Program-made: the position numbers and the translations under genes | Assembly: GCA_026706895.1 (NCBI GenBank) | Contig: JAPOXW010000027.1 | Coordinates: 72,373 to 136,372, forward strand | DNA: 64,000 nt | From: Gammaproteobacteria bacterium | GTDB lineage: Bacteria > Pseudomonadota > Gammaproteobacteria > Poriferisulfidales > Poriferisulfidaceae | Reading direction: 5' to 3' | Notes under the pieces: generated by a model | Database searches by the model: none | Seen by the model: only the letters and a program-made list of their open reading frames with translations | Told to the model about the DNA's origin: nothing | Part shown: positions 8,752 through 56,192 of the stretch, piece after piece | Layout: each line of letters begins with the position of its first letter | How positions within the stretch are numbered: the stretch's first letter is position 1

Positions 8752-8831
8752 GTGATTCAGGTGTTTTGCTGGAAGCCTATTTTACTTCTTGCCGCGATCC
8801 GCGCAAAACACCGCTTGGCAGAAAATACTTC

Positions 8832-11154: not shown

Positions 11155-11165
11155 ATATCGGCTTA

Positions 11166-11591: not shown

Positions 11592-11860
11592 GTCGGCCCG
11601 AAGTCGTGCTTTACACGGGCCCCGCCTGCCCGTACTGCGACCGCGCCAAGATGCTGCTGGAACGCAAGGGAGTCTCCTATCAGGAAATCCGCGTGGATCG
11701 GGACCCCGGGGAATTCTCTACCATGCTGGAGCGTAGCGGCGGGTGCCGGTCCGTGCCGCAAATTTTCATCGGGGACTACCACGTGGGCGGTTTCGACGAC
11801 ATGTCCGCACTCAATTTGGAAGGCAAGTTGGATCCATTGCTGGCGGGAGAGCCGGCGTGA
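11588..11860 (+). CDS. grxC: Glutaredoxin 3
   Basis: CPYC active site (YTGPACPYCDRAK). GTG start overlaps the rhodanese stop as GTGA. Confidence 0.85.
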   Translation: MSRPEVVLYTGPACPYCDRAKMLLERKGVSYQEIRVDRDPGEFSTMLERSGGCRSVPQIFIGDYHVGGFDDMSALNLEGKLDPLLAGEPA

Positions 11861-11910
11861 CGAAGAAATCTGCCTCCCTCTCCGGCAAAGGCGCAACCCG
11901 GACGAGACGC

Positions 11911-12384: not shown

Positions 12385-12394
12385 CATTCCCGGC

Positions 12395-13387
12395 ATGAAA
12401 ATTTCGATTCTGGGGCAGGGCGCATGGGGCACGGCGCTCGCCTTTCACGTATCCCAGGCCCATGCGGTGCGCTGGTGGGGCCGCGACTCGGCCCGATGCC
12501 GGACACTGGCGAGCACTCGATTGAACGAGGCCGCCCTCCCGGGTTGCGTCATCCCGGATTCCATCCAGATCACGGAAGACATCCAGGCCTGCGTGGAGGA
12601 CTGCGACTGGGTCGTCATGGCCGTACCGGCTGCGGCAACAGCCGAAGTCGCCGCACAACTGCAACCGGTCTCCCGGTTCGGGCTGATCTGGACCTGCAAG
12701 GGAATGGATCCGGACAGCGGCCGGATGCCCGGTGAGATCCTGGATGACGTCTTGGGTCCGGGAACGCAGCGCGCCATCCTGTCAGGGCCTTCTTTCGCGG
12801 ACGACCTTGCGGCAGGGCTGCCGGCAGCCGCGGTCATGGCAGCGACAGACCCAGAGGTCGCCGAGGCAGCCGCCACGGTGTTTCATCATGGCCCGTTTCG
12901 AATCTATCCGGGAACGGACCCGGTCGGTGTCCAACTCGGCGGCGCAGTGAAAAACGTTCTGGCGATCGCCGCCGGCATTGCGCACGGACTGCGGCTCGGC
13001 GACAGTGCCCGCGCCGCGTTGATCACCCGCGGCATCAACGAAATGATGGTGCTGGGCAAGGCACTGGGAGCGAATCAGTCCACCTTGTCCGGCCTGTCCG
13101 GTCTGGGTGATCTTGTGTTGACCTGCTCCAGCGCCCATTCGCGCAATTTCCGCTTGGGCCAACTGATCGGCGAAGGTCAATCGGTTGAACAGGCCAGCAC
13201 TACAATCGGGCAGGTCACCGAGGGGCGGCACACCGCCCTCGCGTTGTCTCGGCTAAGCCAGGATCATGGACTGGAACTGCCCATCTGCGAACAGGTTCGG
13301 CAGGTGCTGGCGGGGGCTATCCGCCCAGCCCAAGCGGTCGAGGCCTTGCTGACACGTCCGGCCAAGTTCGAGGTTCTGCATGCCTGA
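12395..13387 (+). CDS. gpsA: NAD(P)H-dependent glycerol-3-phosphate dehydrogenase
   Basis: MKISILGQGAWGTALA Rossmann N-terminus. Conserved position after secB. Confidence 0.9.
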   Translation: MKISILGQGAWGTALAFHVSQAHAVRWWGRDSARCRTLASTRLNEAALPGCVIPDSIQITEDIQACVEDCDWVVMAVPAAATAEVAAQLQPVSRFGLIWTCKGMDPDSGRMPGEILDDVLGPGTQRAILSGPSFADDLAAGLPAAAVMAATDPEVAEAAATVFHHGPFRIYPGTDPVGVQLGGAVKNVLAIAAGIAHGLRLGDSARAALITRGINEMMVLGKALGANQSTLSGLSGLGDLVLTCSSAHSRNFRLGQLIGEGQSVEQASTTIGQVTEGRHTALALSRLSQDHGLELPICEQVRQVLAGAIRPAQAVEALLTRPAKFEVLHA

Positions 13388-14333
13388 CAAAGACCCGCTT
13401 TCCATCGATTTTTCCGGCCTGTCCCTGAAGACCCCTCTGGTCCTGCTCTCGGGCTGCGTCGGTTTCGGCGACGAGTACACCCGGGTCGAAGGCTTTTCGC
13501 ACGACGAGATTGGAGCGATTTGTCTCAAGGGAACCACTCTCGAACCCCGCCTGGGCAACCGGCCGCACCGATTGGCGGAAACCCCGGACGGCCTGCTGAA
13601 CTCGATTGGTCTGCAGAATCCCGGCGTGGATGCGGTCATCCGCGATGTGCTGCCGACCCTGGATTTCTCCGCCACCCGCTTCCTCGCCAACGTGTCTGGA
13701 GCCACCGTCGAGGAATACGCTGAGGTCACACGGCGCTTCGACGACTCCCCGATCGACGGCATCGAGGTCAACATCTCGTGCCCCAACGTCAAGGCCGGCG
13801 GCATGGAATTCGGCAATGACCCGAAAATGTCGGCGGTCGTGGTTGATGCCTGCCGAAAGGCGACCCCCAAGCCGCTGATTATCAAAATGTCGCCGAATCA
13901 GACCGACATCCGTGCCAATACGCGCGCCTGCCTGGAAGCGGGAGCTGACGCATTCGCGGTCATCAACACGGTCTCCGGCATGGCCATCGACGCCGAGTCC
14001 CGTTCCGCCGTGCTGGGTGCAAAACAGGGAGGATTATCCGGGCCTGCCATCAAACCCATCGCCCTCCTCAAGGTGCATGAGGTCTACCAGGAAACCGTAG
14101 CCCACGGCATTCCGATCATCGGTCAAGGGGGCGTGGTTTCGACAACGGACGCGCTGGAATTCCTGATTGCTGGCGCTTCGGCGGTGGGGATCGGCACCGG
14201 GCTGTTCTACGACCCGTTGGCCTGCCGTTCGATCAACGGGGGTATTCGCGACTACCTGCTGCGCCACGACCTTGGTTCGGTTGCGGAACTGACTGGCACC
14301 TTGGATTTCAGCGACGCTCAGTCTTCCGAATAG
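13380..14333 (+). CDS. Dihydroorotate dehydrogenase family protein (class 1-like)
   Basis: SIGLQNPG, NISCPN and GGL TIM-barrel flavoenzyme motifs of the class 1 DHOD/DHPD catalytic subunit family. Confidence 0.65.
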   Translation: MPDKDPLSIDFSGLSLKTPLVLLSGCVGFGDEYTRVEGFSHDEIGAICLKGTTLEPRLGNRPHRLAETPDGLLNSIGLQNPGVDAVIRDVLPTLDFSATRFLANVSGATVEEYAEVTRRFDDSPIDGIEVNISCPNVKAGGMEFGNDPKMSAVVVDACRKATPKPLIIKMSPNQTDIRANTRACLEAGADAFAVINTVSGMAIDAESRSAVLGAKQGGLSGPAIKPIALLKVHEVYQETVAHGIPIIGQGGVVSTTDALEFLIAGASAVGIGTGLFYDPLACRSINGGIRDYLLRHDLGSVAELTGTLDFSDAQSSE

Positions 14334-15178
14334 CCAAGCCGCTCAAGCAGACCCTGCAGCGAATCATCGCTGCTGTAATGCAGCACCAAGTTGCCGCCTT
14401 TTCTCCCGGGACGGAGGGTGACCGGGCACCCCAGATGATCTGACAGCCGTTGCTGGAGTCGCGTTAAATCCGGATCCGGCTCCGAATCGCTGGAAGATTT
14501 GGTTTTCTTGGTTTTCTGCGCCCGGCGCTCCGTCGCCCGAACCGACAAGTCCTCGTCCTGAATGGCTTGCGCCAGTTTTTTCTGGCGATTGACCGGCAAT
14601 GGCACTAAGACCCGGGCATGCCCCATGCTGATCTTGCCGTCCCGAACCAGCTGTTGGACTTCCGGGCAAAGTTCGAGCAAGCGAATCAGGTTGGTGACGG
14701 TGGCGCGCGCCCGGCCGACCTGCTCGGCGACTTGCTCGTGAGTCTGATCCAGGCGTTCGGCCAACCCGCGCAACGCCTGGGCCTCATCGATGGGATTGAG
14801 GTCTTCCCGCTGGATGTTTTCGATCAGGGTAATCGTCGCGGCCTCGTCGTCGGACAAGTCGCGGACGATCGCCGGCAGGGATTCGAGTCCAGCGGCACGG
14901 GCGGCGCGTAGCCTCCGCTCTCCCGCCACCAGTTCGTATTGCCCTCCGACCCGGCGCACCACAACCGGTTGGATCGCGCCACGCTCTTTCAGCGAGGCAG
15001 CCAAGGACTCGATCGCTTGATCGTCGAATTGAGTTCGCGGCTGGTACGGACTCGTACGCAACCGACTCAGCGGGATGTCCTGAAGTTCCGAATCGTCGCG
15101 TTTATCAACCGGCTCGGGCCGAGAACTCAGCAGGACGTCGACCCCTGCTCCCAAGCGGCGTTTCGGAGGATTGCTCAT
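14318..15178 (-). CDS. parB: Chromosome partitioning protein ParB
   Basis: ParB box GERRLRAA and HTH region. Lies downstream of parA. Confidence 0.9.
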   Translation of the reverse strand: MSNPPKRRLGAGVDVLLSSRPEPVDKRDDSELQDIPLSRLRTSPYQPRTQFDDQAIESLAASLKERGAIQPVVVRRVGGQYELVAGERRLRAARAAGLESLPAIVRDLSDDEAATITLIENIQREDLNPIDEAQALRGLAERLDQTHEQVAEQVGRARATVTNLIRLLELCPEVQQLVRDGKISMGHARVLVPLPVNRQKKLAQAIQDEDLSVRATERRAQKTKKTKSSSDSEPDPDLTRLQQRLSDHLGCPVTLRPGRKGGNLVLHYSSDDSLQGLLERLGYSED

Positions 15179-15954
15179 AGGGTGAAACCGGATTCGGAGC
15201 GTTCGCGGCGCAGGATTTCGCCTGCCAACATCAGATATGCGACAGCACCCCGGCTCGACGGGTCGTAGGACGAGACCGGCCGCCCATGACTGGGAGCTTC
15301 GGCCAACGTGACATTGCGAGGGATCATGGTGCGATAAACCTGTCCGCCAAAATGTTCTACAAGTGCTTCGGAAACTTCGCGGGATAGTTTGTTGCGTGGG
15401 TCGTACATGGTACGCAGGATTCCCGCAATGGCAAGTTTCCGGTTCGCTTGACGGGAAATCTGGGTGATGGTGTCAAGCAAAGCGCTCAACCCCTCCAAAG
15501 CGTAGAACTCGCACTGGGTCGGCACGATCACACGGTCGGCAACCACCAGGGCGTTGATCGTCAGGATGTTCAACGACGGAGGGCAATCGACGAGAATGTA
15601 GTCGTCCGTGCGATCAACCAGCGCCTCACGCAGCCGGTACTCGCGCTGGTCTTCCGCCACGAGCCGCACTTCGGCTTCGGTCAGGTCGGGTCCGGCCGGC
15701 ACCAGGTCGAATCCCCCGTGGGGCGCAGCCATGCGCACTTCGGCAATCGAAGCGCCTTCCAGCAGAACATCCGCGCAGCTTTGCGCCAAGTCGTTCTTGT
15801 TCAAGCCGCAACCGGTCGTGGCATTGCCCTGGGGGTCCAGGTCGACCAGCAAGACCTTTTTGCCGGCAGAGGTCAGCGAAGCCGCCAAGTTGATGGCAGT
15901 GGTGGTTTTACCGACTCCGCCTTTCTGGTTGCAGATGGCGAATACCTGGGTCAT
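15175..15954 (-). CDS. parA: Chromosome partitioning ATPase ParA/Soj
   Basis: Start chosen at MTQVFAICNQKGGVGKTTT (deviant Walker A). Its ATG overlaps the rsmG stop as ATGA. Confidence 0.9.
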   Translation of the reverse strand: MTQVFAICNQKGGVGKTTTAINLAASLTSAGKKVLLVDLDPQGNATTGCGLNKNDLAQSCADVLLEGASIAEVRMAAPHGGFDLVPAGPDLTEAEVRLVAEDQREYRLREALVDRTDDYILVDCPPSLNILTINALVVADRVIVPTQCEFYALEGLSALLDTITQISRQANRKLAIAGILRTMYDPRNKLSREVSEALVEHFGGQVYRTMIPRNVTLAEAPSHGRPVSSYDPSSRGAVAYLMLAGEILRRERSESGFTL

Positions 15955-16613
15955 GAGCCCTCCGCGGCGGCATCCGAAGGGCGAAGCACAACCACCGTTC
16001 GGGTCGAAGAGCCGGCAGTCGATTTCTCCAGCTTCATGACCGAAGCGTTCCACCCTTGCGGAAGCTCATGCAGTTCCCGTTCGACGTTCAGACCTTTTGG
16101 AAACAAGTAAACTCCCTCTGTACCGATCAGGTGTTCGCTGCATCGGACAAGTTCCCCCAGCGAACCCACTGCCCGAGCCATGATGCATTCGAACGGGGCG
16201 CCCTGGTAATGCCCAACTTCGCCCGTGACGACCTCGACATTAGGCAGATCCAGTTCCAACTTTACCTGTCGGACGAAGCGGGTTTTCTTGCGGCTGCGGT
16301 CGAGCAGCACGAATTGACGTTCGGGATGGACCACGGCCAGTGGCAAGCCCGGCAACCCGGCGCCAGTGCCAAAATCCAGAATCCGGCATGCATCGGGCGG
16401 AAGAAAATTGGAAAGCACGAGAGAATCCAAGAGGTGCCGCGGCACGATTTCCGGCAGGGTGCGAGCGCCGATCAGGTTGTAGGCCCGGTTCCACTGCGCG
16501 ACAAGCCTACAGTAAGTCGACAGGGTCTTGATTTGCGACGAGGAGAGATCCAGCTCGGAGATTCCCCGAATGCCTGCCTTCAATTGGCGCTCTAATACGC
16601 TTTCCGACGGCAA
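15951..16613 (-). CDS. rsmG: 16S rRNA (guanine527-N7)-methyltransferase RsmG (GidB)
   Basis: Aligns with E. coli RsmG (WNRAYNL, DxGxGxGxPG AdoMet motif in DFGTGAGLPGLPLA). The start is uncertain: I chose the TTG at 16613, while the ORF extends in-frame to 16700. Confidence 0.8.
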   Translation of the reverse strand: MPSESVLERQLKAGIRGISELDLSSSQIKTLSTYCRLVAQWNRAYNLIGARTLPEIVPRHLLDSLVLSNFLPPDACRILDFGTGAGLPGLPLAVVHPERQFVLLDRSRKKTRFVRQVKLELDLPNVEVVTGEVGHYQGAPFECIMARAVGSLGELVRCSEHLIGTEGVYLFPKGLNVERELHELPQGWNASVMKLEKSTAGSSTRTVVVLRPSDAAAEGS

Positions 16614-16701
16614 ACCGGAAGTCGCGGAAACGGTCCGAGAACGGCGCGTTTGACGAGAAGGCTCCCGGGCACGGGAAGGAAGGGCCCTGCCTTCCCCCAT
16701 G

Positions 16702-18534
16702 TCAGAGAACCTGTTGCCGGGTGCCGTCGGCCTTCAAGTGGATCTTCAGGATCGCGACGGCGGCAGGCGTCACTCCGGGAATACGTGCAGCCTGCCCTAG
16801 CGTGGCGGGCCGGCAATGGCTCAACTTTTCTCGCGCCTCGTGGGACAAGGCGGTGATCGACCGGTAGTCGATTCCTTCCGGCAAGCGGCGGGTCTCATCC
16901 TGCTTGAGCCGTTCGATCTCGTGTCGATGCCGACGGATATATCCTTCGTAGCGCAGTTCGATCTCCGCCTGACGACCGATCTCGGGGCTGGCCGGCTCGT
17001 ATGCCGGAAGCATCGAGACGGCTTCCGCATAGTTCGTTTCGGGACGCCGCAGAACATCGGCCAAACTGTCTTCGCCCAGCCGAGTAGCCCGCAATCGTCC
17101 CAATTCCTGCTCCAGCGAATCACGCCGCTTGCAGAAAAGATCCCAGTGCGCGTCGCAGACCAAGCCCAACTTGCGCCCGGTCTCGGTCAGGCGCAGATCG
17201 GCATTGTCCTCCCGAAGGGTCAAGCGGTATTCGGCGCGGCTGGTGAACATGCGGTACGGCTCATCCACGCCCCGGGTAATCAGGTCATCGACCAGAACGC
17301 CGGCATAGGCCTCGTCGCGGCGCGGCCACCAAGCCTCGCGGCCCAAGCTTTGGGTCGCCGCGTTATAACCTGCAAGCAATCCCTGCGCCGCTGCTTCTTC
17401 GTAACCGGTTGTGCCGTTGATCTGTCCTGCCAGATACAGGCCGGGCAGGGCCTTGCACTGCAAGGTCGGGCGCAATTGCCGCGGATCGAAGAAATCGTAT
17501 TCGATGGCATAGCCGTAACGTGTCAGCTGCACTTCCTCAAACCCCGGAATGGTCCGGACGAACTGTTCTTGCACTTCGGCAGGCAGGCTGGTGGAGATCC
17601 CATTGGGATAAATCACGTCGGTATCCAGGCCTTCGGGCTCGATAAATACTTGGTGGGACGGTCGTTCGGCAAAACGAACCACTTTGTCCTCGACCGAGGG
17701 ACAATAGCGCGGCCCACGGCTGTCAATGGCCCCCGTATGCATCGGCGACTGGTGCAAATGTGCGCGAATCAGTTCGTGAGTAGCCTCTGTCGTCCGGGTC
17801 AGATGGCAGGACACCTGCCGCGGGTGCACATCCGGCGGGCTGAACCGGGACAAAGGCGGCGGCGGGATTTCGCCTGGCTGGACAGAAGTCTTGACCCAAT
17901 CAATGGTTTGGCCGTCCAAACGGGGAGGGGTTCCGGTCTTGAGCCGCCCGACATCGGGCAACAGTTCACGCAACCGGTGCGCGAGGAGCAGGGACGGAGG
18001 GTCTCCGGCCCGACCTCCCTGAGTCTGTTCAGCCCCGATATGAATCGCGCCATCCAGGAATGTGCCGGTGGACAACACCACCGCAGACGCCTCGATGCGG
18101 TCGCCTTCTTCGGTGAGAATACCGCCTACCTTGCCGTCCCGCACGATCAGGTCGCCAACCGCAATTGATCGAACCTCCAGGTTTTGGGCTTCGGTAACGA
18201 AGCCCTGGATCGCCTCGCGGTAGAGCTTGCGATCAGTCTGAGCGCGGGTGGCGTGTACCGCGGGGCCTTTTCTCCGGTTAAGCACTCGGACATGAATGCC
18301 GGCACGATCCGCTGCCTGCGCCATCACCCCGCCCAGCGCATCAATTTCACGCACCAGATGGCTCTTCCCGATACCGCCAATCGCCGGGTTGCAGCTCATT
18401 TGTCCGATTCCGTCGAAACGGTGAGTCAAAAGCAGGGTGCGCGCGCCGGTGCGCGCAGACGCAAGCGCCGCCTCCACGCCGGCGTGGCCGCCGCCGATGA
18501 CTAGAACGTCCCAAATGCGATTTGTGGCTGTCAT
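16702..18534 (-). CDS. mnmG: tRNA uridine 5-carboxymethylaminomethyl modification enzyme MnmG (GidA)
   Basis: 610 aa with FAD-binding N-terminus ([15 protein letters not shown]) and the conserved MnmG core. Upstream of rsmG-parAB. Confidence 0.95.
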
Positions 18535-36426: not shown

Positions 36427-37521
36427 CTACCGCGTATCCAGATACGCCTGTTCGGAAATGGCCGTCCAGTCCCGTACCCGCGCGTAAAACGACTGGTAAC
36501 TGTCGTAAACCCGCCGGGTGAATTCGCCGGTTTCAGCCACTTCCGCAATGACCGCCTCGGCATGTTCCCGCAGTGCGCTCAGCACTTCCGGGGGGAATTG
36601 GCGGAGCTCGACTTCGTATTTCTCAACCAGCGCCTTCAGCGCATCATTGTTATGCGCAGTGAAATCAGCCATCATGTCTTGGTTGGTGGCCCGGGCGGCA
36701 TTCTGCACAATGGCCTGAAGGTCTTTTGGCAACGCCTCGAACGCCGGGCGGTGAACCAATCCTTCCAGCGTCGTCCCGGGTTCGTGCCAGCCGGGATAGT
36801 AGTAGTACTTCGCCGCACGGTGCAGCCCGAATGCCAGGTCGTTCCATGGGCCAACCCATTCGGTCGCGTCGATCGCCCCGGTCTGCAGCGACACCAGAAG
36901 CTCTTTGCCACTGAGATTCACCGGCGTGCCGCCGACCCGGCGCAATACCTCGCCGCCTAAGCCCGGGATGCGCATGCGCAGGCCCTGCAGGTCTTCGAGC
37001 CCCCGGATCTCACGCTTGAACCACCCACCCATCTGGACCATGGTGTTTCCTGCCGCCAGCGGAACCACGTCGAACGGAGCATATGCTTCCTCCCATAGTT
37101 CCATGCCCCCTCCCTTGTACAACCAGCCGTTCATCTCATTGGCGGTCATGCCGAACGGCATGGTGGAGAAGAACTGGAACGCCGGGTTCTTGCCTTTCCA
37201 GTAGTAGGCCGCGCCGTGGCCCATCTGTGCCGCGCCTTGGCTGACCGCATCGAACACCTCGAACGCCGGCACCAGTTCGCCCGCTCCGTACACCTGCACC
37301 TGCAGGCGCCCGCCGGACATCTCGCCAATCGCCTGCGCCAGGAATTCCGCGCCAGTGCCAAGGCCGGGAAAGTTCTTCGGCCAAGTCGTCACCATTTTCC
37401 AGTGCAGAGGCTCATCAGCGCTCGCCCGGCCCGCCAAGCCCAACCCGGCTGCCGCAACCGCCGCGCCTGTGCCCAGGAACTCCCGTCTTTGCATCTCACT
37501 CTTCCTGCTTCTTCTCGTCAA
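36427..37521 (-). CDS. TRAP transporter solute-binding protein (DctP-like), Tat-exported
   Basis: Twin-arginine signal (RREFLGTGAAVAAAGLGLA), then DctP-family SBP sequence. Confidence 0.8.
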   Translation of the reverse strand: MTRRSRKSEMQRREFLGTGAAVAAAGLGLAGRASADEPLHWKMVTTWPKNFPGLGTGAEFLAQAIGEMSGGRLQVQVYGAGELVPAFEVFDAVSQGAAQMGHGAAYYWKGKNPAFQFFSTMPFGMTANEMNGWLYKGGGMELWEEAYAPFDVVPLAAGNTMVQMGGWFKREIRGLEDLQGLRMRIPGLGGEVLRRVGGTPVNLSGKELLVSLQTGAIDATEWVGPWNDLAFGLHRAAKYYYYPGWHEPGTTLEGLVHRPAFEALPKDLQAIVQNAARATNQDMMADFTAHNNDALKALVEKYEVELRQFPPEVLSALREHAEAVIAEVAETGEFTRRVYDSYQSFYARVRDWTAISEQAYLDTR

Positions 37522-37599
37522 TTGCTCAAGATGAAATTCTTTCCATACATGGTCAGATGGAACTGTGTCAAGGAATCCGTGCCGAGTAGCACATCGTGA

Positions 37600-37821
37600 T
37601 TAACTGGTTGGTATGGAAGCAACCAAGCCTACTTCTTCCGCAACTTTCTCAGAAACCAAGGTTCGTTGCGCCCCGGTGCCCAGAAGTGAAGGATATGAGT
37701 TTTTAGGCGGGCCGTTGCTGCCCGGAACCGAGGTCGCAGAAGCAAGAATTATTTGACCGTTTTTAACTTCCCCCACGAAAGTCGGCATCCCTACACTCCC
37801 TGCGTGGAGGTGGGAACACAC
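37600..37821 (-). pseudogene. Retropepsin-like aspartyl protease remnant (truncated, active-site Asp not preserved)
   Basis: 73-aa ORF with LLGTGAQRTLVSEKVAEEVGL, resembling the bacterial clan-AA DTGA loop but with Asp replaced. It is far shorter than the ~120-aa domain and overlaps the upstream ORF out of frame. AT-rich. Confidence 0.25.
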
Positions 37822-38066
37822 ATCGTGAATATTCCAAGAGATACCGGAGGCTCCCCAATTTTCTGAATTGAGAAGTTTCCTAGGCCATATCTCTCACATC
37901 CAATGTCGTAAGCATCGCCACTGTCGTTATAGACAGCCACCATTTCACCGTCGTGGAGCAACGCGACACGTCCGGGCTCTTTTGATTCCAACCTGCTTCT
38001 CACCGCCTCATATGCCTTGCGGTTTTTTTCAAGCTGATCATCAACATTGGGTTTTGTCTTATTCAT
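37791..38066 (-). CDS. Small hypothetical protein (DUF5678-like), AT-rich
   Basis: 91 aa from the ATG preceded by GGGGGAA. The VALLHDGEMVAVYNDSGDAY segment is reminiscent of DUF5678, but the assignment is weak. Confidence 0.3.
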   Translation of the reverse strand: MNKTKPNVDDQLEKNRKAYEAVRSRLESKEPGRVALLHDGEMVAVYNDSGDAYDIGCERYGLGNFSIQKIGEPPVSLGIFTMCVPTSTQGV

Positions 38067-38178
38067 CAATTCCCCCGCCTTGACTTTAGGATTGTACCGT
38101 AAATTAGCATATGTTTCGGTTGGTTGTTGACGGTCAGCAACCCTTACCAGACAGACCAAACTCAGCCAATCTTCCCTC

Positions 38179-40356
38179 CTACCGGCATTCCAACTTCGCG
38201 TAGTCGTACATGAGCCATTTGACGCCGACGTCCTCGAAGCGTACCTGAACCCGCAAATGCGGCGGCCGACCTTCGTATTCTACGATGACCCCGGGGCCGA
38301 ACTTCGGATGCGCCACCGGTGTGCCCGGACCGGGCACGTCCAGGTTGGCGGGAGGGGTCGGGCGGGTCGCCCCGAATCTGGCCAGGAACGCGGAGGCAGG
38401 CGGAACAAAGTCTCGCGGCACCTCGGTCACTGTGTGTTCGTCGGGCAACTCCTGAAGAAAGCGCGACGGAATCAGGCCCGAGGAAGTTCGCCCAAAGATC
38501 AGCCGTTCGTAGGCATGCGTCAAGACCAACTGCTGCCGGGCACGTGTTATGCCCACGTAACAAAGCCGGCGTTCCTCTTCCAGCGGGGAGTCCTCTCGTG
38601 TCATCGGCAGGATGCCGTCTTCCAACCCAACAATGAACACCAGCGGAAACTCCAGCCCCTTGGCCATGTGCAGGGTCATCAACTGAACCGCATTCCCGGG
38701 CACGCCCTCGCCCCGCTCACCCGCTTCCAGCGCCGTGCTGTCCAAAAATGCTTCCATCAGGCCGGGGCTTTCGCCTTCATCAGGTTCCCAGTTATCCTCG
38801 AACGCCGCGGCGGAATTCACCAGTTCCCCCAGATTCTCGCTGCGCACCTCTTCCAACTCCCGGTCAGTCTCTTGATACATATCCAATAACCCGGATTGAT
38901 CCAGGATGCGTCGGATGGTTTCCGCCAATCCGCGCCCTTCGGTTTCCTTACGCAGAGCCTCCAGGCATTGCTCGAATTCCGCCAGCGCCCGGCCCGCGCG
39001 CGAAGTGGACTGGCTCTTGACCTGCTCCTGCGCCGCCGCAAACAGCGATTCGCCAGCGGCAGAAGCAGTCGTGCGCACGGCTTCAACCGTCCCTGCGCCA
39101 ATACCCCGGGGCGGAACATTGCACACCCGCTGCCAGGCAACATCGTCATTCGGGTTCAGGCACAGTCGCAGATAGGCCAGAGTGTCTTTCACCTCGCGGC
39201 GCTCGAAGAATCGGATGCCCCCGTACACCCGATAGGGGATTTGCCGGTTGTTCAGGTTCGTCTCGAAGGGCTGTGACTGCCGATTCGTGCGGTAGAGCAC
39301 GGCACACTCGTCCCACCGTCCCCCGTCTTCCACCCACTGTTTGATCTTTCCGATGACGTAGTTGGCTTCCGCCCCTCCGGTCGGTGCGCTGAACACGGTG
39401 ATCGGATCTTGTTCGGCCCGGTCGGTCCACAACCGCTTTTTTAACCGGTCGTAGTTGTTCCCGATCAACGCATTGGCCGCCTCAAGCACCGGGCTGGTGG
39501 AGCGGTAATTCTGCTCCAACGGCCAGACCTGGACATTCTTGTGGTTTTTCTGGAAGTCGAGGATATGCCTTGGGCGCGCTCCCCTCCAGCCATAGATCGA
39601 TTGGTCGTCGTCTCCGACTACGAACAACGGGCGTTCGCCGCCCGCCAGCAGTTTCAGCCAAGCATTCTGCAAATCGTCCACATCCTGGAATTCATCCACC
39701 AGCAGGTGGCGAAACCGCCTCTGGTAATACTGCTGCACAGGGGAATGTTCGCGCAACAGTTCGACGCAGCGCAGCAGCAGTTCATCGAAATCTACCAAGC
39801 CGCTCTGTTCGCAACGCCGCTCGTATCGCTCCATAACCGGGAGACGAGCTTGTTCCCGATCGCTTTCGGGCTCGATATGGCGGGCGCGCAGGCCCTCTCC
39901 CTTCTTCAGGCTGATCCACCGAATGGCGTCGGCGACATCGCGCGCCTTGCGCGGCTGGTCAAGGTCTCGAAGAATCTGACGAATCAGGGTTTTCTGATCC
40001 TCTCGATCCAAGATCTGGAAGTTCCCGAGCAACCCGGCCTCGTCATGAAAGCGCAACAGCATCCTGCGGGCCAGCGCATGGAACGTCCCGACCCACAGAC
40101 CGCCCGCGGGCTGCCCCCGCAACCGTTCGATGCGCTCCCGCATCTCGGTCGCCGCCTTGTTGGTAAATGTAACCGTCAGAATTTCTTTCGGCTGGATGTC
40201 CTGCGTCTTCACCAACCAGGCGAAACGGTGAGTCAGCACCCGGGTCTTACCCGAGCCGGCGCCCGCCAGCACCAGAGTGCAGTAATCCGAATCCGATGTG
40301 ACCGCGTTGCGCTGCGCCTTGTTTAAGTCATCCAGGATCGGGTCCGCCGGGGTCAT
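38179..40356 (-). CDS. uvrD: ATP-dependent DNA helicase (UvrD/Rep family; size fits UvrD)
   Basis: 725 aa from [12 protein letters not shown]. Motif I is [11 protein letters not shown], with further SF1 motifs. The C-terminus is UvrD-like. Start overlaps the ubiB stop as ATGA. Confidence 0.85.
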
Positions 40357-41897
40357 CCGCCCCCCCAGTGCAGGAATGCCAACCAGCCAGACATTGCCAA
40401 CGCCGCGATTGCGACAGCTGCCAGCCAGAGGCGGGTGTGTTTGAGCTTGCGCCGGGAAGTTTCGAGTCTCGTTTGAAGCGCCGGCGAAGGATCCGGCGGT
40501 GGAGTGGCCGGAGGATCTCCAAGGAAATGCTCGACCATCTGCGGGAGGCGATGGCGCACAAGCCGAACCAGCGCAAACAACCCGGTCTGCTCGCTCACCC
40601 AGCGATCCATGAAAGGCTTGGCGGTAGTCCACAGGTCTAGATCCGGGTACAGTTCGCGACCGACACCTTCGATATTGACCAGAGTTTTCTGCAGCAGCAG
40701 CAGTTGCGGCTGCACTTCCATCTGGAAGCGGCTCGCAGTCTGGAACAGCCGCAACAGCAGGTTCGCGAACGAAATCTCGGAAAACGGCCGCTGGAAGATC
40801 GGCTCGCATACCGTGCGGATAGCCGCTTCGAAATCCGCGACCCGGGTCCCGGGCGGCACCCAACCGGATTCCACGTGCAATTCCGCCACCCGTCGGTAGT
40901 CGTTGTTGAAGAAGGCCGCTAGGTTGAACGCCAGGTAGCGCTGATCGGAAGCCGACAGCGATCCCATGATGCCAAAATCCACCGCACTGTATTTCGGCGA
41001 CTCCGGAGTCTCCCGGGAGATGAAGATGTTGCCGGGATGCATGTCGGCATGGAAGAAATTGTGGTCGAACACCTGGGTGAAGAAAATCTCCACGCCCCGC
41101 TCGGCCAAGCATTTCAGGTCGACTCCATGACGCACCAATTCCTCGCGGTCCGAGATCTGGATCCCGTAGATGCGCTCCATGGTCATGACGTCCCGGGCGG
41201 TGTAGTCCCAGAACACTTCCGGCACGTAAAGCAGTTCGCTGTTCTCGAAGTTGCGGCGCAGTTGGCTGGCATTGGCAGCTTCGCGCGTCAGATCCAGCTC
41301 GTCAAAAATAACGCCTTCGTATTCGGTCACCAGATCTACCGGATGCAAGCGCCGGGATCCCTCCCAGACTCGTTCGAGAAACCGGGCCAATCGGTACATC
41401 ATCCGGATGTCGCGGCGAATCGTCTTCTCGATCCCGGGACGCAGCACCTTGACGATGACGTCGGTATCACCCAGGCGCGCCGCGTGGACCTGGGCTACCG
41501 AGGCGGAGGCGAGCGGCGTGGTGTCGAACTGGCTGAACATCTCCTGTATCGGGCGTTCCAACGACTGCTCGATGACCTTGCGCGCCGCCTCCCCGTCGAA
41601 TGGCGGCACCCGATCCTGAAGCAGGGCCAGTTCGTCGGCCAAGTCAGTGGGAAGCAAGTCGCGCCGGGTCGACAGCATCTGCCCAAACTTGACGAAAATG
41701 GGCCCCAGGTCTTCCAGCGCGCGCCGAATGCGCTCCGCCTGCGGCCTGCGCAACCGGCGGAACCAGTTCCAGGGCAGCAAATAAAGCAGTGCACGTCCCA
41801 GCCGGAACCGGGACAGGGCGATTTCATCGAGGCCGTGGTGCAGCAGCACCCACGGGATATAAAGCGGTCGCGCGAGAATGCGCCCTTGTCCGTTCAT
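40353..41897 (-). CDS. ubiB: Ubiquinone biosynthesis protein UbiB (ABC1 atypical kinase)
   Basis: 514 aa ABC1/ADCK-like kinase fold ([23 protein letters not shown]) with a C-terminal TM anchor. Confidence 0.9.
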
Positions 41898-42524: not shown

Positions 42525-43440
42525 TCAGACCACCCTTGGTCGTATCAGAATCTTTTGAGGCGAGGTTCGCGGCTGGCTATCTGTCGCATGACCAGCGTGA
42601 TCTTCTCCGCCTGCGGGTAGGCTGCGGCAAGCTTCTCCAGGAATCGGGCCCAGTCTGTTTTCGTCCTGCGCACGGTGACTTGGGTCATCCGCTTTCCCGC
42701 CAAGGGTTCGGTGGCCAGGAACACGGTGCCCGTGCCGAGACGGCGGTACTCGTAGTCCTGACGGGCATCCCGGCCCGGGCTCATCGGTATCGGCACGCGG
42801 GTCTCCCCGATCAGCTGGCGTGGCGTCTCGTCCATGCACACCACCGGAAAGGCCGGATCGTACGGACGACGGTACACCTCGAGCACCCGCTCCATGGCCG
42901 CCACGAAATGGCCATTGCCCTGCGGCGGAATCACCCAGCCGACCCGTCGCCAAGGCTTGAGTTCGTTTTTTTTAGCACGCGACGCACCGTCTCGTAGGAG
43001 ATGCTCTCGACATAACCCAGCTCCACCGCCCGGTCCGCCAACAGCCGCAAGGACCACTGGGCATGCCCCGAGGGAGGCGCCGTGCAACTCAAGGCCACCA
43101 GGCGCGCCTCGAACTCCCCGTCCGCCTTGCGCAGGTAAGTCGGCCGCTTGCCTTGGCGACCGCCCAGGGCCGCTTCCAGTCCCTCTTCGACAAAGCGCTT
43201 CTTCACCCGGTCCACCTTGCGAAGGCTGACCCGCAGGATGCCCGCGATCGATTCCCCGGTCGTCTGGCGTTCATTGAACTTCCCTGCATCGCAGTTCAGG
43301 AGAATCAAGGCGTTGATCACTTTCTGGGAAGCGTGAGAACCCTTGCGCGTCATCTCGCCCAGGTCCGATCGCTCCGACTGATCCAGGGTTACTACATAGC
43401 GTTTCATGGCTGCCCTTCCCTCCATGCAGGATAACACGGC
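42525..43440 (-). mobile_element. IS630-family insertion sequence remnant (two-ORF transposase, 3'-truncated)
   Basis: OrfA (42931-43437) has an HTH N-terminus. OrfB (42545-43087) carries the start of the DDE domain but ends prematurely. An A8 slippery run on the coding strand (T8 on plus at 42966-42973) falls in the orfA/orfB overlap, as at IS630 programmed -1 frameshift sites. Confidence 0.75.
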
Positions 43441-43520
43441 GGGATTTTAGCACCAACTATACGACATTAGATAGATGACATGACACTAGGTGTTATCTGT
43501 AGTATATTTACCCACGATCT

Positions 43521-44711
43521 GTGCACATTTCCCCCCGAACAATGTACTTACAAAGAACAGAGGATTTGAGAAACGAGATTGTTGGCATCCTCCGCCTACA
43601 GGGCTATACCGTTACTGACCATGCCTTTCACTTAGTCGATCCTGGCAAGGAAAAAATGAGGAACCTTCATTCTAGAGCCCGAGCAGAAAAAATCTGCCGG
43701 CACATCAATTTCATGCAGTCACGTGCCTGTAAAGTCAAAGAATTCATGCTTAACAGCGATGAGGTACAGATTGACAAGATCGCCCCCCGGATTATTGAAG
43801 TTCGTGCCAACTCAATCTATGTAGATTTGTTTCGATGGTGGAACCTAGCTTGGTGGAGCCTGCCATATGAACGGACTTATGGAAGACAAATGCGGTTTAT
43901 CGTCTGGGATGAATATCATAATGCGCCAATCGGGTTGATTGGATTGCAAAGTCCGATTTTGCGCTGGAACGTTCGAGACGAACATCTTGGCCTCGCTCCG
44001 GACAAAAGGGATTATTGGATTAACCAATCCATGAATGCGCAACGATTAGGCGCGTTGCCCCCATATAACAAATTCCTCGGCGGAAAACTCGTCGCTTATC
44101 TCATGATGTCTGATGAGATTCGTAAACAGTATCGGGAAAAATACAAAAACCGTGAAACAATCATGATGAAAAGGATGATCCCCCCTCATTTGCTGTTTAT
44201 TACCACAACTGGTGCATACGGGAAAAGCAGTGTTTATAACCGGTTGCGATTCAATGAGAGTCGAGTCTGTGAATTCATCGGCTACAGTCGGGGAAACGGT
44301 TCTTTCCACATACCTGACACACTATATGAAAGTTTGATACATCATCTCGATAAAAATGGGGTCAAAGTAGGTCGGGCTTTCGGTAGCGGTCCTTCTGCAA
44401 AGATCAAAAACATAGACCGGTCAATGCGTCTTTTGGGCTTTAGAAAAGGTAGCAGTCACGGCATCAAGCGCGCTGTCTACTTATTTTCTTTCGTCCAGAA
44501 CCTCCAATCAGTGATTCAGCACAATGAAACACCAATTTGGGAACAGCGTAATATCGATGAATTGACGCAATATTGGAAAGACCGGTGGGCGATAAAAAGA
44601 AATGGTGGCTATCCGAAGGAAAAACTAAGATTCAGGAAGGAAGAGTTCATGTGCTCAATGAAACAGGATTGGGAGCGTTGCAAAAAGTTAATTGAGAGCA
44701 ATCTACCATGA
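43521..44711 (+). CDS. Hypothetical protein, first gene of an AT-rich three-gene module ending in NurA-like and HerA-like genes
   Basis: 396 aa, AT-rich, with no TM segments or signal peptide. No family recognised by eye. Its stop overlaps the next ORF's start as ATGA. Confidence 0.5.
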   Translation: MHISPRTMYLQRTEDLRNEIVGILRLQGYTVTDHAFHLVDPGKEKMRNLHSRARAEKICRHINFMQSRACKVKEFMLNSDEVQIDKIAPRIIEVRANSIYVDLFRWWNLAWWSLPYERTYGRQMRFIVWDEYHNAPIGLIGLQSPILRWNVRDEHLGLAPDKRDYWINQSMNAQRLGALPPYNKFLGGKLVAYLMMSDEIRKQYREKYKNRETIMMKRMIPPHLLFITTTGAYGKSSVYNRLRFNESRVCEFIGYSRGNGSFHIPDTLYESLIHHLDKNGVKVGRAFGSGPSAKIKNIDRSMRLLGFRKGSSHGIKRAVYLFSFVQNLQSVIQHNETPIWEQRNIDELTQYWKDRWAIKRNGGYPKEKLRFRKEEFMCSMKQDWERCKKLIESNLP

Positions 44712-45898
44712 CGCAGGAAAATAAAGGCTATGCCTACCTGCCCGAAGATCTTCTAGTGCAAATACTTGGGAAAATCCCTGAAACCGCCGACCGGTTGGCA
44801 ACAAGTATTGAATTAAATAATGAGCAGGCAACCGCCGCCCGGAGGGTTCTGAAGGAAAGGGATCTGATCAGAGTCTGTCCCGACGGAAATCATACGGAAT
44901 CCATGATGGCAGCTGATGGGGCCTGTATCGTAGAACACAAAACCAGCGCAGACATTTTGCTTGCCATTGCGGTGGGAGTGGATGGCCTTTCTGATGAAGA
45001 TTCGTCAACATGGCCAGAAGGAGAAAGGCAATATCAGCACTGGCAAGCGGTCTTGCCCCATCATGTTGCCAATCCGAGATTGTCACAGGGGATTATGTTC
45101 TTGATGGAACTCAGCATACTTGCTGGAAATGATCGCGAAGTCAAAATCATGGATGGGTCGCATTTGACTTCCATACTCAAACTCAACAGCCTCTTGAGCG
45201 CCAATGATCAGGATGCGGCAGATCAACCATATGTCCAAGCACTTTCGGATTTCTTACACGAGAATTACGAAAAAGTGATTCCAGACATTCCGAATATAAT
45301 TCGTGACGCTTTTTCCGATAGTGCGGTGGTTGGATTGACCAAATATTCTTCTTCCCGCGAGATTATTGATACAGTTTTACGAGAGACACAAATCGATATG
45401 GACGATAAAGTGTTTATGTCAATCGTCCTGAATGAGAACGAATATACGAAACCGCTCACAGTTGGACAATGCCGCAAGGAACGAGGTATGTGGAAAAACG
45501 TACACATGAAATGCAATCTGGAGATTGAGGGGGTAGACAATGACTCGGAACTAAATCCATGTCTGGAAGAGGCTATTGCCCCATTCAAGATAACGGATAA
45601 TCACGAATCAGAACTTTACTTTTGCTATTACAAGCCGAATTCATACTCATCAGCTCACAGGATTGAAATCAAACAGGAACTTGCGCTTGATTCAGGAAAA
45701 TTGGAAAAAATGTTCCGGAGTGTCAAGCGTCAAATTATCTCTCCAGAAATCAGGGAGCCATACCCCCAGTACCTAGCAGACATCATAGCCAAAAACATCT
45801 CTTTCGGTATGGAAGCGATAAATCAGGCTATCAGCCACAACCCGACTCTTAATACCCAGAAGAATTTTGATTTGATTTTTCCTTACCGCACTAACTGA
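44708..45898 (+). CDS. Probable NurA-family nuclease
   Basis: 396 aa. Assigned mainly by its conserved pairing immediately upstream of a HerA-type ATPase, plus DG[SL] acidic motifs (VGVDGLSDED, KIMDGSHL). Fold not verified. Confidence 0.4.
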   Translation: MTQENKGYAYLPEDLLVQILGKIPETADRLATSIELNNEQATAARRVLKERDLIRVCPDGNHTESMMAADGACIVEHKTSADILLAIAVGVDGLSDEDSSTWPEGERQYQHWQAVLPHHVANPRLSQGIMFLMELSILAGNDREVKIMDGSHLTSILKLNSLLSANDQDAADQPYVQALSDFLHENYEKVIPDIPNIIRDAFSDSAVVGLTKYSSSREIIDTVLRETQIDMDDKVFMSIVLNENEYTKPLTVGQCRKERGMWKNVHMKCNLEIEGVDNDSELNPCLEEAIAPFKITDNHESELYFCYYKPNSYSSAHRIEIKQELALDSGKLEKMFRSVKRQIISPEIREPYPQYLADIIAKNISFGMEAINQAISHNPTLNTQKNFDLIFPYRTN

Positions 45899-45920
45899 AA
45901 AACAAACGTTCACGACTAAC

Positions 45921-47627
45921 ATGAATATTATTTCTATTCTTGAAAGCGATAATGAACCGCTGGGAGTAGTCGGTTCTCCGAGCAGTTCTTTTGAGGCAAT
46001 TGTTGATATAAAAGAAGTGAGCGAGTCAAGCAAACTGTTGGGAGAACTGGTATGTTTTCAGGTCCCAGAAGGCGACAATCAAGTGCTTGTCCTCGGCCAG
46101 ATTACTGAAATCGAGACCAGAAACAGATGGCATGAGGAACCGTCATTTAAGGGAATCATCAAGCGGCACGGGAATCTGCCCAATCTGAGCGGTGTTGCCG
46201 ACAATCGAATCGCCAAAATTAATGTCCAATCCAGTTTCATCCTGGCCGGTGATTCTCCGCAGGCACATAAACTTGCAAACTCTCCTACAACTGGCACTCC
46301 CGTGAAGAAAATAAGCAACACCATCATGGAAGAACTCATGAGGCAATATGAGGGCCATCTTGTCTGCCTTGGGACTGCCTACGACACGGATGTCAAAGTG
46401 CCATTCTGGTTCAGACATTTTGGCAGTCCGAGTGATGGAGGAGGGGGCGACGCTTATCACATTGGGGTTTTTGGTCGAACCGGGTCCGGCAAAACAACAA
46501 CTGCCGCTAACATGATTCTAGGATACGCCCGGAATAGGGAAAACATGAGTATTTTGATACTTGACCCACAAGAGCAATTTTATGAAGACAACAATGTACT
46601 ACCCGGAGGAAACAAATTCGAGGATGCAATAAAGCAAACCGGGATGCAGTTCAAAAAGTACAAGGTCCCAGAGGATATCGCCTTGCCCAATGATGAAAAA
46701 TTGTTCAGCGAACTGCTTTTGAATTACAACTTTGTAAGAAGGGCATTCAGATTGCACTCTTCGGAGAAACAGACGCTGATGGCGGAATCGATACAAGACT
46801 ACATTACAGGAAGAATGAATGATCCCAGTTTCATAATCGGAGATGAAAATAGTGATACTCTTCTTGCCAAGATGGTTCAAAAATTCAATGACGATGAAAA
46901 ATATCTTAAAAATGTCTATTCAAGCGGCCAGTACTTCAACAATCTAAAGAGACGAATTGAGAGCATGGTGGGGGACAGTGTAGATTCTGAAGCAAAGCAA
47001 ATATGGGCGCATGTCTGTAGCCTATTTAAATCTGATGGGAAAAAGGGGCTAGCTCAAGTGGTCGAATCAGTGGTAGGCAAGCCAAACAATCTTATTGTGC
47101 TCAACATCTCGGGAAGGCATGCCACAAGCGGGATGGAGTCCCTCCAAACACTCTTCATCAAGATTATCGAAGATGCCGTGAAGAAAAGGGGGGCAGATCT
47201 ATATGCCCAAGGAAGCCAAGCAAACTGTCTAGTCGTGCTAGACGAGGCTCACCGGTTTATCAGCACATACAGCTACGACCAAGAACTCAAGGACTTGACT
47301 ACTAGCATCGTTGATGCTGTCCGGACTACGCGGAAATATGGAATTGGCTATATGTTCATTACACAAACCATTGATTCGCTCCACGAGGAAATCAGAAGAC
47401 AGATCAGAATTTTTGCATTTGGGTATGGGCTCACGAGCGGTTCGGAGTTTCGCAAGATACAAGACACCATCAATGACGATACAGGGGCTAAATTTTACCG
47501 GTCCTTCATTGATCCATCGAGTAACAACAAGTTTCCGTTTATGTTTTATGGTCCGATTTCCCCTCTTTCCTTCACGGGAACACCTCTTTTTCTGGAAGTG
47601 GGCAAACAAATCAAGGACTTCCCTTAG
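45921..47627 (+). CDS. HerA-type (FtsK/HerA superfamily, DUF87) ATPase/helicase
   Basis: 568 aa. N-terminal HAS-barrel-like region. Walker A is GVFGRTGSGKTTTAANM and Walker B is CLVVLDEAHRF. The RKYGIGYMFITQ arginine-finger/sensor block is typical of HerA/VirB4-like ATPases. Confidence 0.8.
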   Translation: MNIISILESDNEPLGVVGSPSSSFEAIVDIKEVSESSKLLGELVCFQVPEGDNQVLVLGQITEIETRNRWHEEPSFKGIIKRHGNLPNLSGVADNRIAKINVQSSFILAGDSPQAHKLANSPTTGTPVKKISNTIMEELMRQYEGHLVCLGTAYDTDVKVPFWFRHFGSPSDGGGGDAYHIGVFGRTGSGKTTTAANMILGYARNRENMSILILDPQEQFYEDNNVLPGGNKFEDAIKQTGMQFKKYKVPEDIALPNDEKLFSELLLNYNFVRRAFRLHSSEKQTLMAESIQDYITGRMNDPSFIIGDENSDTLLAKMVQKFNDDEKYLKNVYSSGQYFNNLKRRIESMVGDSVDSEAKQIWAHVCSLFKSDGKKGLAQVVESVVGKPNNLIVLNISGRHATSGMESLQTLFIKIIEDAVKKRGADLYAQGSQANCLVVLDEAHRFISTYSYDQELKDLTTSIVDAVRTTRKYGIGYMFITQTIDSLHEEIRRQIRIFAFGYGLTSGSEFRKIQDTINDDTGAKFYRSFIDPSSNNKFPFMFYGPISPLSFTGTPLFLEVGKQIKDFP

Positions 47628-47636
47628 CACAAAACA

Positions 47637-48416
47637 ATGCCTATTTACAACCGTCTGCTTCTTCTGGGTCTGCTGGCTTCACTCGGTGGAATCATACATG
47701 CCGCAGATTTGCCGTTCTCCTTGGGCGCGGACTCCGGGCTGCAGATCGCCGTGCGACTGATTCCGGACAAGACCCCAGAAGAACCGTCATCGGACGGCAG
47801 TATCGAGGAAGAGGGCGCGGAATCTCCGGAACAGGCGGAAGAAGGTGCGCCTTCCGCACAAACTCCCGGTGTCCCGGCCTCACAGGAGGACCGCGGCGAA
47901 GATCAAGGCCTTTTGGAGAGTCCGGAAGAGGGTCAGCCGGCCGCAGGCCAGGAAACCGCCGGTGAAACCGAAGGTCCCGGTATCGAAGACGGGCTCGAAA
48001 GGGAACCGGAACTTGCGGAACAGGCCAGTATCGAAGAAGGGCAAGAGAAGGATCTGTCCCGAATCGAGGCCGTGTTGAACCGTGTTGACCAGATCCTGCT
48101 GGACGCGCGAACCCGAGCCCGCAAAGAGCGGGAAGGAACAGTCGATGGCGAAGGGACAGCAGAAGAAGATTTGCCGGATTGGGAGACACAGGGCGAAGGC
48201 GAAGGGGAAGCTGCGGAGGAAGGAGCCGAACGCGGCGGAGTCGCCGAGGGCCAGGTCCCCGGCGATGTCCCGACCGGCAAGACGCGTCCGACTCACGGCT
48301 ACGAGGGTGACGACGACATCGTGACCCGGCAGGTCTGCGAACTGGCGCAACGGGAGGAAGATCCCGAGGTCCGCAAACAGCTGGAGCAAAAATGCAAGAG
48401 CCTGCGAGACAGTTAA
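47637..48416 (+). CDS. Secreted acidic low-complexity protein (first gene of the envelope operon)
   Basis: Signal peptide MPIYNRLLLLGLLASLGGIIHA, then a Glu/Gly/Pro-rich disordered region and a C-terminal Cys pair. Host-like GC. Its stop overlaps the next ORF. Confidence 0.5.
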   Translation: MPIYNRLLLLGLLASLGGIIHAADLPFSLGADSGLQIAVRLIPDKTPEEPSSDGSIEEEGAESPEQAEEGAPSAQTPGVPASQEDRGEDQGLLESPEEGQPAAGQETAGETEGPGIEDGLEREPELAEQASIEEGQEKDLSRIEAVLNRVDQILLDARTRARKEREGTVDGEGTAEEDLPDWETQGEGEGEAAEEGAERGGVAEGQVPGDVPTGKTRPTHGYEGDDDIVTRQVCELAQREEDPEVRKQLEQKCKSLRDS

Positions 48417-56116: not shown

Positions 56117-56192
56117 TGGTGGACCCAGGGGGAATCGAACCCGCCGTTACTGCCGTGAAAGGGCAGTGTGCTAACCGCTACACTATGGGTCC
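56117..56192 (-). tRNA. tRNA-Glu (anticodon UUC)
   Basis: Reverse complement is GGACCCATAGTGTAGCGGTTAGCACACTGCCCTTTCACGGCAGTAACGGCGGGTTCGATTCCCCCTGGGTCCACCA. Cloverleaf with anticodon loop CTTTCAC, T-loop GGTTCGATTCC and an encoded CCA. Confidence 0.85.

Follow-up and report, generated by a model that had tools for sequence, protein, structure and literature searches.

A low-GC island pairing a DruA homolog with NurA and HerA is a candidate mobile anti-phage module

What role does a compact block of three coupled genes, visibly foreign in base composition, play in the gammaproteobacterial genome that carries it? The question is raised by one island on contig JAPOXW010000027.1, a 183-kb scaffold of a gammaproteobacterial metagenome-assembled genome (MAG), from which a stretch of 64,000 nucleotides (nt), hereafter the window, was analysed. 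Over about 43.3-47.7 kb of the window the guanine-plus-cytosine (GC) content is 0.40-0.49, against 0.58-0.66 on either side (mean GC 0.447 for the trio and 0.589 for the remaining window). Genes 1 and 2 of this island are joined by an ATGA overlap, and genes 2 and 3 are spaced 22 nt apart (Table 1). A sequence-only reading of the window had described both this coupling and the sharp drop in GC, as we find them here, and had proposed that a NurA nuclease and a HerA ATPase, together with an upstream protein of no recognisable family, form a defence system. Conserved synteny and genomic context strengthen the idea of defence, but the upstream protein is no orphan: gene 1 belongs to the DruA family, and because of this the trio is best described as a DruA-anchored module that has NurA-HerA where Druantia type I has DruB-DruE. 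By tying the cassette to Druantia, gene 1 makes the finding more interesting than had first been supposed. Overall, we put the probability at roughly 0.6 that the three genes of the island form a self-contained, horizontally mobile unit of defence against phages or plasmids.

The assignment of gene 1 is supported by several independent profiles. The protein matches Pfam PF14236 (DUF4338) with 213.5 bits against a cut-off of 27 (E 5e-63) and the PADLOC DruA1 profile with an E value of 2.7e-81, its residues 11-381 falling on profile positions 13-387 of 407. When a profile of the gene 1 family was compared by hhalign with the DruA of the Druantia I system on P. putida pKF715A, the two aligned over 368 columns at 31% identity, with a probability of 100% and an E value of 1e-54. 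By these comparisons gene 1 encodes a full-length DruA, the signature protein of Druantia type I. The protein consists of a GNAT-fold core at about residues 89-260, with N- and C-terminal helical extensions, and the alpha/beta fold of the core is that of the GNAT enzymes; DUF4338 had already been classed as GNAT by the Aravind group (PMC10853773). Within the core, the segment spanning strand 4 and helix 3 (AQRLGALPPYN..LGGKL) contains Q174, R175, G177, G188 and K189, all at least 97% conserved, and departs from the exact canonical acyl-coenzyme A (acyl-CoA) motif Q/R-x-x-G-x-G/A. The donor could be acyl-CoA or, as in phage Mu Mom, an aminoacyl-tRNA. Of the three proteins, DruA is under the tightest constraint: 77 of its positions reach at least 97% conservation across 94 sequences, an enzyme-like pattern, and R122, D130, H133, S144, Y182, K189 and H263 are among its invariant residues. 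Translation of gene 1 starts either at GTG 43521 or at ATG 43542, while the public druA call (351 amino acids) begins 135 nt late and drops L24, Q27, G28 and F36, which are invariant in the homologs. In the literature that we searched, we found no experimental work on DruA.

Gene 2 had been read as a NurA partner partly for its DG motifs, and this assignment agrees with both profile and fold searches. Its Pfam NurA (PF09376) score is 29.3 bits (cut-off 21; E 7.4e-7), and the same family is matched independently by 21 of 24 diverse relatives, the best at 1.3e-9. The fold search places the protein among the RNase-H-like NurA nucleases, with TdpB among its top structural matches. Four acidic residues, D70, E134, D149 and D358, show at least 97% conservation across 79 homologs, a divergent subclade included, and follow one another in the order expected for an RNase-H-like tetrad, D...E...D...D/H; the DG motifs are D70-G71 and D149-G150-S. 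This order and the secondary-structure positions of the four residues suggest that they are equivalent to the catalytic residues of solved NurAs. A profile of the gene 2 family retrieved no NurA from the PDB at E <= 10; the link to solved NurAs needed Pfam and the fold search. Taken together, gene 2 is a true but distant NurA. Its public annotation reads 'DNA double-strand break repair nuclease NurA', and the family is small: of 1.84 billion representatives searched, 310 clusters fall within E <= 1e-3 and 29 within E <= 1e-30.

For gene 3, the HerA/FtsK ATPase that had been recognised from its motifs, the evidence is of the same kind. The match to Pfam DUF87, the HerA central domain, scores 38.9 bits (cut-off 23.2), and the PADLOC matches are mad8 (7e-16) and HerA (1e-11). 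Its closest solved sequences are 8wiv, a 'HerA central domain' protein (2.8e-5), and then TdpA (2.4e-3). The Walker A motif GRTGSGKT (G185-x-T-G-S-G-K191), the Walker B pair D441-E442 and the arginine block (R468 and, in RKYG...TQ, R471-K472 and Q482) are each at least 97% conserved in 63 homologs, and conservation extends into residues 1-170 (S19-P20-S21, G41, G59-Q60, W70). None of the curated NCBIfam HerA equivalogs is reached (HerA_Thermprot 25 bits, cut-off 800; HerA_antiphage_2 21.5, cut-off 850; helicase_HerA 13.6, cut-off 970), which indicates that gene 3 represents a separate, divergent HerA clade.

The three genes are kept together as a unit. (Here we draw on two samples: 38 loci from species-representative genomes, seeded with NurA, and 80 metagenome loci, seeded with DruA and picked by DNA patterns for the trio-type DruA clade, at least 42% identical to gene 1.) DruA, NurA and HerA are adjacent at every NurA-seeded locus that is not cut by a contig end (about 30 reference-genome loci), with constant order and strand except at L031, where DruA lies downstream on the opposite strand. 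The hosts of this sample span at least 8 phylum-level groups and include Gammaproteobacteria, Bdellovibrionales, Thermodesulfobacteriota, Omnitrophota, several Patescibacteria lineages, Ignavibacteriales, Eubacteriaceae and Brocadiales. Among the 80 DruA-seeded loci the complete trio is present at 59; at another 11, DruA and NurA are followed by the contig end, and at 8 DruA stands alone no more than 702 nt from a contig end, too short a distance for a NurA gene. Only 2 of the 80 lack the partners despite enough sequence, so that within the trio-type DruA clade the linkage of the three genes is near-absolute. All-against-all clustering of the flanking open reading frames (ORFs) at about 117 loci revealed no fourth conserved gene. 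Clusters of small ORFs common to many loci proved to be antisense shadow ORFs inside the trio, and methylases and recombinases, considered as a fourth partner, are found at no more than 9 loci each and are of different families. In one subclade (L051, L055, L074, L076, L119), DruA is about 50% identical to gene 1, NurA 24-27% and HerA 33-34%, which reflects either slower evolution of DruA or an exchange of its two partners.

Beyond this clade, the components occur in other company. In the canonical Druantia I loci on plasmids of P. putida and Nitrosococcus, DruA is followed by 2-3 hypothetical genes and then by DruE, an SF2 helicase (DEAD/DEAH, YprA family) of more than 1,800 amino acids. A haloarchaeal plasmid (L042 6639-16429) has a long DruA, two genes of no assigned family and a 1,500-amino-acid FtsK-like translocase, a Roseivivax plasmid (L043 4996-8750) has a GHKL ATPase followed by, or fused to, a long DruA, and a metagenome locus (L122 1474-6245) has DruA with a kinase-ORC/Cdc6-like AAA+ protein; these last three are possibly additional DruA-based systems, as yet uncatalogued. 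On the other side, the distant NurA-HerA pairs of Rhizobium and Natribaculum plasmids have other accessory genes in place of DruA. Since each occurs elsewhere without the other, DruA and NurA-HerA are separable modules that were joined in this clade. The recurrent company of ATP-driven nucleic-acid motors or ATPases further suggests that DruA serves as an exchangeable front end.

On Rhizobium leguminosarum pRlX5 (L125 4644-10874), the NurA-HerA pair is flanked by a 387-amino-acid protein and a GHKL ATPase and lies next to a Rep3 initiator gene; there is no DruA at this locus, and its NurA has no PADLOC match. The 387-amino-acid protein, encoded upstream of NurA, was tested as a cryptic DruA and is not one. 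Likewise, the 381-amino-acid protein encoded between DruA and a DnaB-like helicase at L083 is not a cryptic NurA.

The genomic surroundings of the trio are those of mobile cargo. GC content of the trio is below that of its flanks by more than 3 points at 37 of 68 loci and above it at 4 of 68, and none of the other loci shares the flanking genes of the window, even where relatives have 73-80% identical proteins. In the cultured Arcobacter sp. F155 (positions 1285-16862 of locus L127; GCA_004116455.1, PDJU01000005.1, 121.7-138.9 kb), the trio, with druA divergently oriented, lies directly downstream of Tn7-like tnsA, tnsB, tniB and tniQ and is followed by patatin, Endonuclease_NS, Prok-JAB and ThiF genes and a gene for a WYL protein; here the trio is cargo of a Tn7-like transposon, within a cargo defence island. 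Elsewhere, restriction-modification (R-M) genes of several unrelated, ATP-dependent types are immediate neighbours: Eco57I/TaqI_C type IIG methylases with PLD-SNF2 (L026, L059, L075, L087, L089), Type I HsdR (L018, L048, L123), Type III Mod/Res (L050, L110) and Type ISP (L093, L113). These often share the strand of druA and are separated from it by only a few dozen bases. Such adjacency could be plain defence-island clustering, or R-M cuts could supply DNA ends for NurA-HerA. Serine recombinases flank 9 loci. On plasmids we found only distant DruA (about 30% identity) and the two distant NurA-HerA pairs without DruA. Conserved synteny, together with these defence-island and transposon contexts, strengthens the reading of the trio as a defence module.

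How does the trio relate to systems already described? As the sequence-only reading had asked to be checked, no single system in PADLOC-DB v2.0.0 covers it: gene 1 matches DruA only, gene 3 matches only the generic HerA and mad8 profiles, and neither gene 2 (E <= 1) nor four other NurAs of the clade (E <= 0.001) have a match. A full-text search of the literature likewise yielded no description of DruA combined with NurA and HerA. With PADLOC-DB v2.0.0 as the catalogue checked, the trio is thus probably an uncatalogued compact anti-phage system.

One of its closest relations is Druantia type I, with which it shares DruA (PF14236), alike in length, architecture and motifs. Each of the two systems travels as mobile cargo in surroundings like those of defence islands, and each couples DruA to an ATP-driven DNA motor. 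The trio differs in that, throughout the window and about 117 related loci, it comes without DruB, DruC and DruD and without a DruE-type large helicase, so that a canonical Druantia I can be dismissed; its motor is a HerA ring ATPase, its nuclease a separate NurA, and its DruA is about 31% identical to the canonical one. DruE is common to all Druantia types described in PMC8565338 and PMC12458937. Type IV, which consists of DruE, DruF and DruL (PMC8565338), does not fit either.

The second half of the trio invites comparison with other HerA systems. Relative to the HerA-NurA pairs of archaea and Deinococcus, sequence similarity is marginal, DruA is obligatory, and the trio is mobile and patchy in distribution. 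Another parallel is TdpAB, whose subunits were solved together: TdpA is the second-closest solved sequence to gene 3, and TdpB is among the top structural matches of gene 2. TdpABC, from thermophiles, is listed in PMC12914056 and PMC13223576 as R-M based on phosphorothioate, with TdpC by itself responsible for the modification; on our reading, TdpAB would be its restriction arm. The third component of the trio is a GNAT-fold DruA where TdpABC has the phosphorothioate-forming TdpC, and any modification chemistry would therefore differ; with DruA as the sole conserved third gene, identity of the trio with Tdp is unlikely. DUF4297-HerA is an anti-phage complex of HerA and a nuclease (PMC11291478), and this system, SIR2-HerA and the HerA/FtsK capture systems resemble the trio in joining a HerA-family ATPase to an effector enzyme in a mobile defence context. 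In the trio, however, the effector is NurA rather than SIR2 or the PD-(D/E)xK nuclease DUF4297, and there is an extra GNAT-fold component; genes 1 and 2 have no SIR2 or DUF4297 match in Pfam or PADLOC, and they match none of the PADLOC models for partners in HerA systems.

By homology to solved complexes, the HerA ring ATPase would pump double-stranded DNA, and NurA docked on it would degrade the DNA as it is fed through, as in archaeal and Deinococcus HerA-NurA and in TdpAB. The concept of a translocase that feeds invader DNA into a nuclease is found in PMC10853773 and PMC12839542, and the trio would operate as a HerA-anchored defence system of this kind. DruA would then be the discrimination component that chooses which DNA NurA-HerA attacks. 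We envisage two versions of this role. In the first, DruA would covalently mark host DNA, for example at adenine N6 like the GNAT enzyme Mom, and unmarked incoming DNA would be resected, which amounts to an R-M logic; TdpABC offers a precedent. In the second, DruA would acylate or bind a protein or small molecule and thereby sense infection or license the nuclease, as a sensor, adaptor or co-effector. We prefer the first version, though only tentatively, and give about the same weight to the second.

The covalent-mark version also has a more specific form. Mom of phage Mu is a GNAT-fold enzyme for adenine N6 of DNA, and differs from DruA in being a 231-amino-acid phage counter-defence enzyme with no detectable sequence kinship (hhalign probability 0.4%). 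A further precedent for marking is a PacBio adenine signal at CAGCTGNC, which has been reported only in cells expressing Druantia type I, a system with no methylase domain (10.1101/2024.04.14.589459). DruA might be a GNAT that acylates adenine N6 or another base position at host sites, in which case the trio and, with it, Druantia type I would form a chemically new class of R-M; we regard this as doubtful. If true, there would be an R-M system that is neither methyl- nor phosphorothioate- nor deazaguanine-based, in which the mark shields self DNA from a translocase-nuclease, and the signal resembling N6-methyladenine ('m6A-like') of methylase-free Druantia type I would be explained.

A number of observations weigh against the trio being a defence module, or against DruA marking DNA within it. 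The defence role is argued through guilt by association, and the classical function of NurA-HerA is end resection in DNA repair. The structural model of gene 2 is of moderate confidence (predicted local distance difference test score, pLDDT, 64.6), some catalytic segments being low. No relatives of gene 2 are found on viral contigs in IMG/VR, and most hosts are uncultured MAGs. DruA is uniform, at about 50% identity across phyla, and has no obvious hypervariable target-recognition domain, which disfavours diversified, sequence-specific marking of DNA. Furthermore, the Druantia adenine signal comes from one unreviewed preprint, where it is not ascribed to DruA (10.1101/2024.04.14.589459), and the DUF4338 GNAT domain fused to DndF was read by the Aravind group as a protein-targeting co-effector (PMC10853773).

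Other functions for the trio must be set against this record. Foremost is abortive infection. Here DruA would act as a toxin, a GNAT like TacT or AtaT, by acetylating charged tRNA or some other essential target, while NurA-HerA would either detect the ends of foreign DNA or serve as an additional, self-destructive effector. The loci have no conserved small gene resembling an antitoxin beside DruA, however, and DruA has large N- and C-terminal extra domains that are absent from the small GNAT toxins. Its constant association with nucleic-acid motors or ATPases is a better fit to a DNA-directed role, and we consider abortive infection improbable.

Housekeeping repair of double-strand breaks, in which NurA-HerA would resect ends for homologous recombination under DruA as a regulatory acetyltransferase, has several points in its favour: gene 2 is a true NurA by profile and fold, its public annotation names a repair nuclease, gene 3 is a HerA, and a UvrD helicase gene lies about 2.4 kb upstream. 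Yet only the three genes are conserved, with mre11/rad50 linked to the trio at no locus, and the rare family (310 clusters in 1.84 billion) is scattered patchily over unrelated phyla at a different site in each genome. Atypical GC, Tn7-like carriage and R-M neighbours, together with an obligatory partner that is a defence-system marker, further count against a repair function, which we hold to be quite unlikely.

No better placed is the suggestion that the trio serves a mobile element, processing or pumping DNA or excluding competitors on behalf of a transposon, plasmid or integrative element. FtsK/HerA ATPases do power DNA transfer in many elements, and gene 3 has weak matches to VirB4, TraC, TrwB and CedD, but none of these comes anywhere near its family cut-off. 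In Arcobacter a Tn7-like element carries the trio, serine recombinases adjoin it at 9 loci, and there are plasmids on which a distant NurA-HerA pair neighbours a Rep gene; nevertheless, no recombinase, relaxase or replication gene is consistently linked, and the adjacent mobility genes come from families unrelated to one another, which is what cargo would show. Exclusion of competitors would in practice be defence. Finally, despite the full-length match of gene 1 to the PADLOC and Pfam DruA profiles, a decayed or partial Druantia type I that lost druB-druE and by chance came to lie beside an unrelated NurA-HerA pair is excluded for practical purposes, because the trio, its frames intact and its catalytic residues conserved, is found again at about 90 independent loci, no large DEAD/DEAH helicase recurs beside it, and the trio-type DruA is only about 31% identical to that of canonical Druantia I.

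A three-gene defence module anchored by DruA would be informative in several respects. Few anti-phage systems act as broadly as Druantia type I (10.1101/2024.04.14.589459), and its mechanism is described nowhere in the literature that we searched. The trio offers a natural minimal DruA system with only two partners, both of well-understood families with solved complexes, and for that reason the role of DruA, whether it marks DNA, senses infection or regulates the nuclease, is directly testable. If the defence reading is correct, NurA-HerA, known mainly from repair and TdpAB, has been recruited to immunity with a Druantia component; if DruA modifies DNA, this would be an epigenetic self-mark of a new kind. 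Patescibacteria and symbionts of sponges, with small genomes, are also within the reach of the module. MAG names hint at sponge symbionts as hosts at L003, L014 and L046 and for protein P0180 (Candidatus Poriferihabitaceae; Candidatus Mycalebacterium zealandia), and many other relatives come from Patescibacteria with small genomes.

Within the window, the borders of the island are sharp (Table 1). Its right-hand limit is the gene 3 stop codon, and 10 nt on begins the next gene, which has host-like GC. On the left it adjoins an insertion sequence (IS) of the IS630 family, whose two ORFs encode an HTH_29/32 protein of 158-168 amino acids and a DDE_3 protein of 129-180 amino acids; the split reflects either a programmed frameshift or a decayed copy. 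With its host-like GC, this element lies outside the module and marks a recombination-prone site. The sequence-only reading had placed the island beside both an IS element and a tRNA gene, and only the former is a direct neighbour. The sole tRNA gene of the window, for tRNA-Glu, is 8.5 kb downstream of the trio, with several genes of host-like GC in between, a distance that rules it out as the integration site. Searches of the island flanks for direct or inverted repeats bounding the island returned only short, low-identity matches at chance level. A sigma-70-like promoter candidate precedes gene 1 and is a weak one, as a consensus scan finds fewer promoter-like sites in the region than in its own shuffles; no intrinsic terminator was found 3' of gene 3 on the + strand. 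The neighbours of the trio in the window are the IS630 element, a ubiB-region gene and unrelated genes of host GC. The UvrD-family ORF (725 amino acids in the public call) also has host GC and is separated from the trio by ubiB, one further ORF and the IS630 element; it is a housekeeping-type neighbour.

Table 1. Positions of the three-gene island and of features around it, in window coordinates (aa, amino acids).
Feature	Position	Strand	Product length	Basis
Low-GC island with three genes	43440..47630	.		Composition profile and junction sequence
Gene 1, druA-like, DUF4338/DruA family	43521..44711	+	396 aa	Pfam, PADLOC, hhalign
Gene 2, nurA-like, RNase-H-fold nuclease	44708..45898	+	396 aa	Pfam NurA, fold search, conserved acidic residues
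Gene 3, herA-like, FtsK/HerA-superfamily ATPase	45921..47627	+	568 aa	Pfam DUF87, PADLOC, PDB matches, motifs
IS630-family element	42545..43437	-		Two overlapping ORFs; Pfam DDE_3, HTH_29/32; GC 0.60-0.66
Sigma-70-like promoter candidate	43480..43508	+		ATGACA-17-TATATT, 10/12 matches; just 5' of gene 1
UvrD-family ORF	38179..41112
tRNA-Glu gene	56117..56192	-
Acidic-protein gene downstream of the island	47637..48416		259 aa
Smaller GC dip	37500..38250

Two further features of the window deserve mention. The gene directly downstream of the island, of host-like GC, encodes a highly acidic, Glu/Gly-rich protein with no Pfam match and a hydrophobic N-terminal segment resembling a signal peptide; it is present at none of the other loci and is unrelated to the trio. 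A smaller dip in GC (0.49-0.50) separates a DctP-like gene from the UvrD-family gene; its two small ORFs, of 62 and 91 amino acids in the public calls, have no Pfam match, and it is possibly a small acquired cassette, such as a toxin-antitoxin pair.

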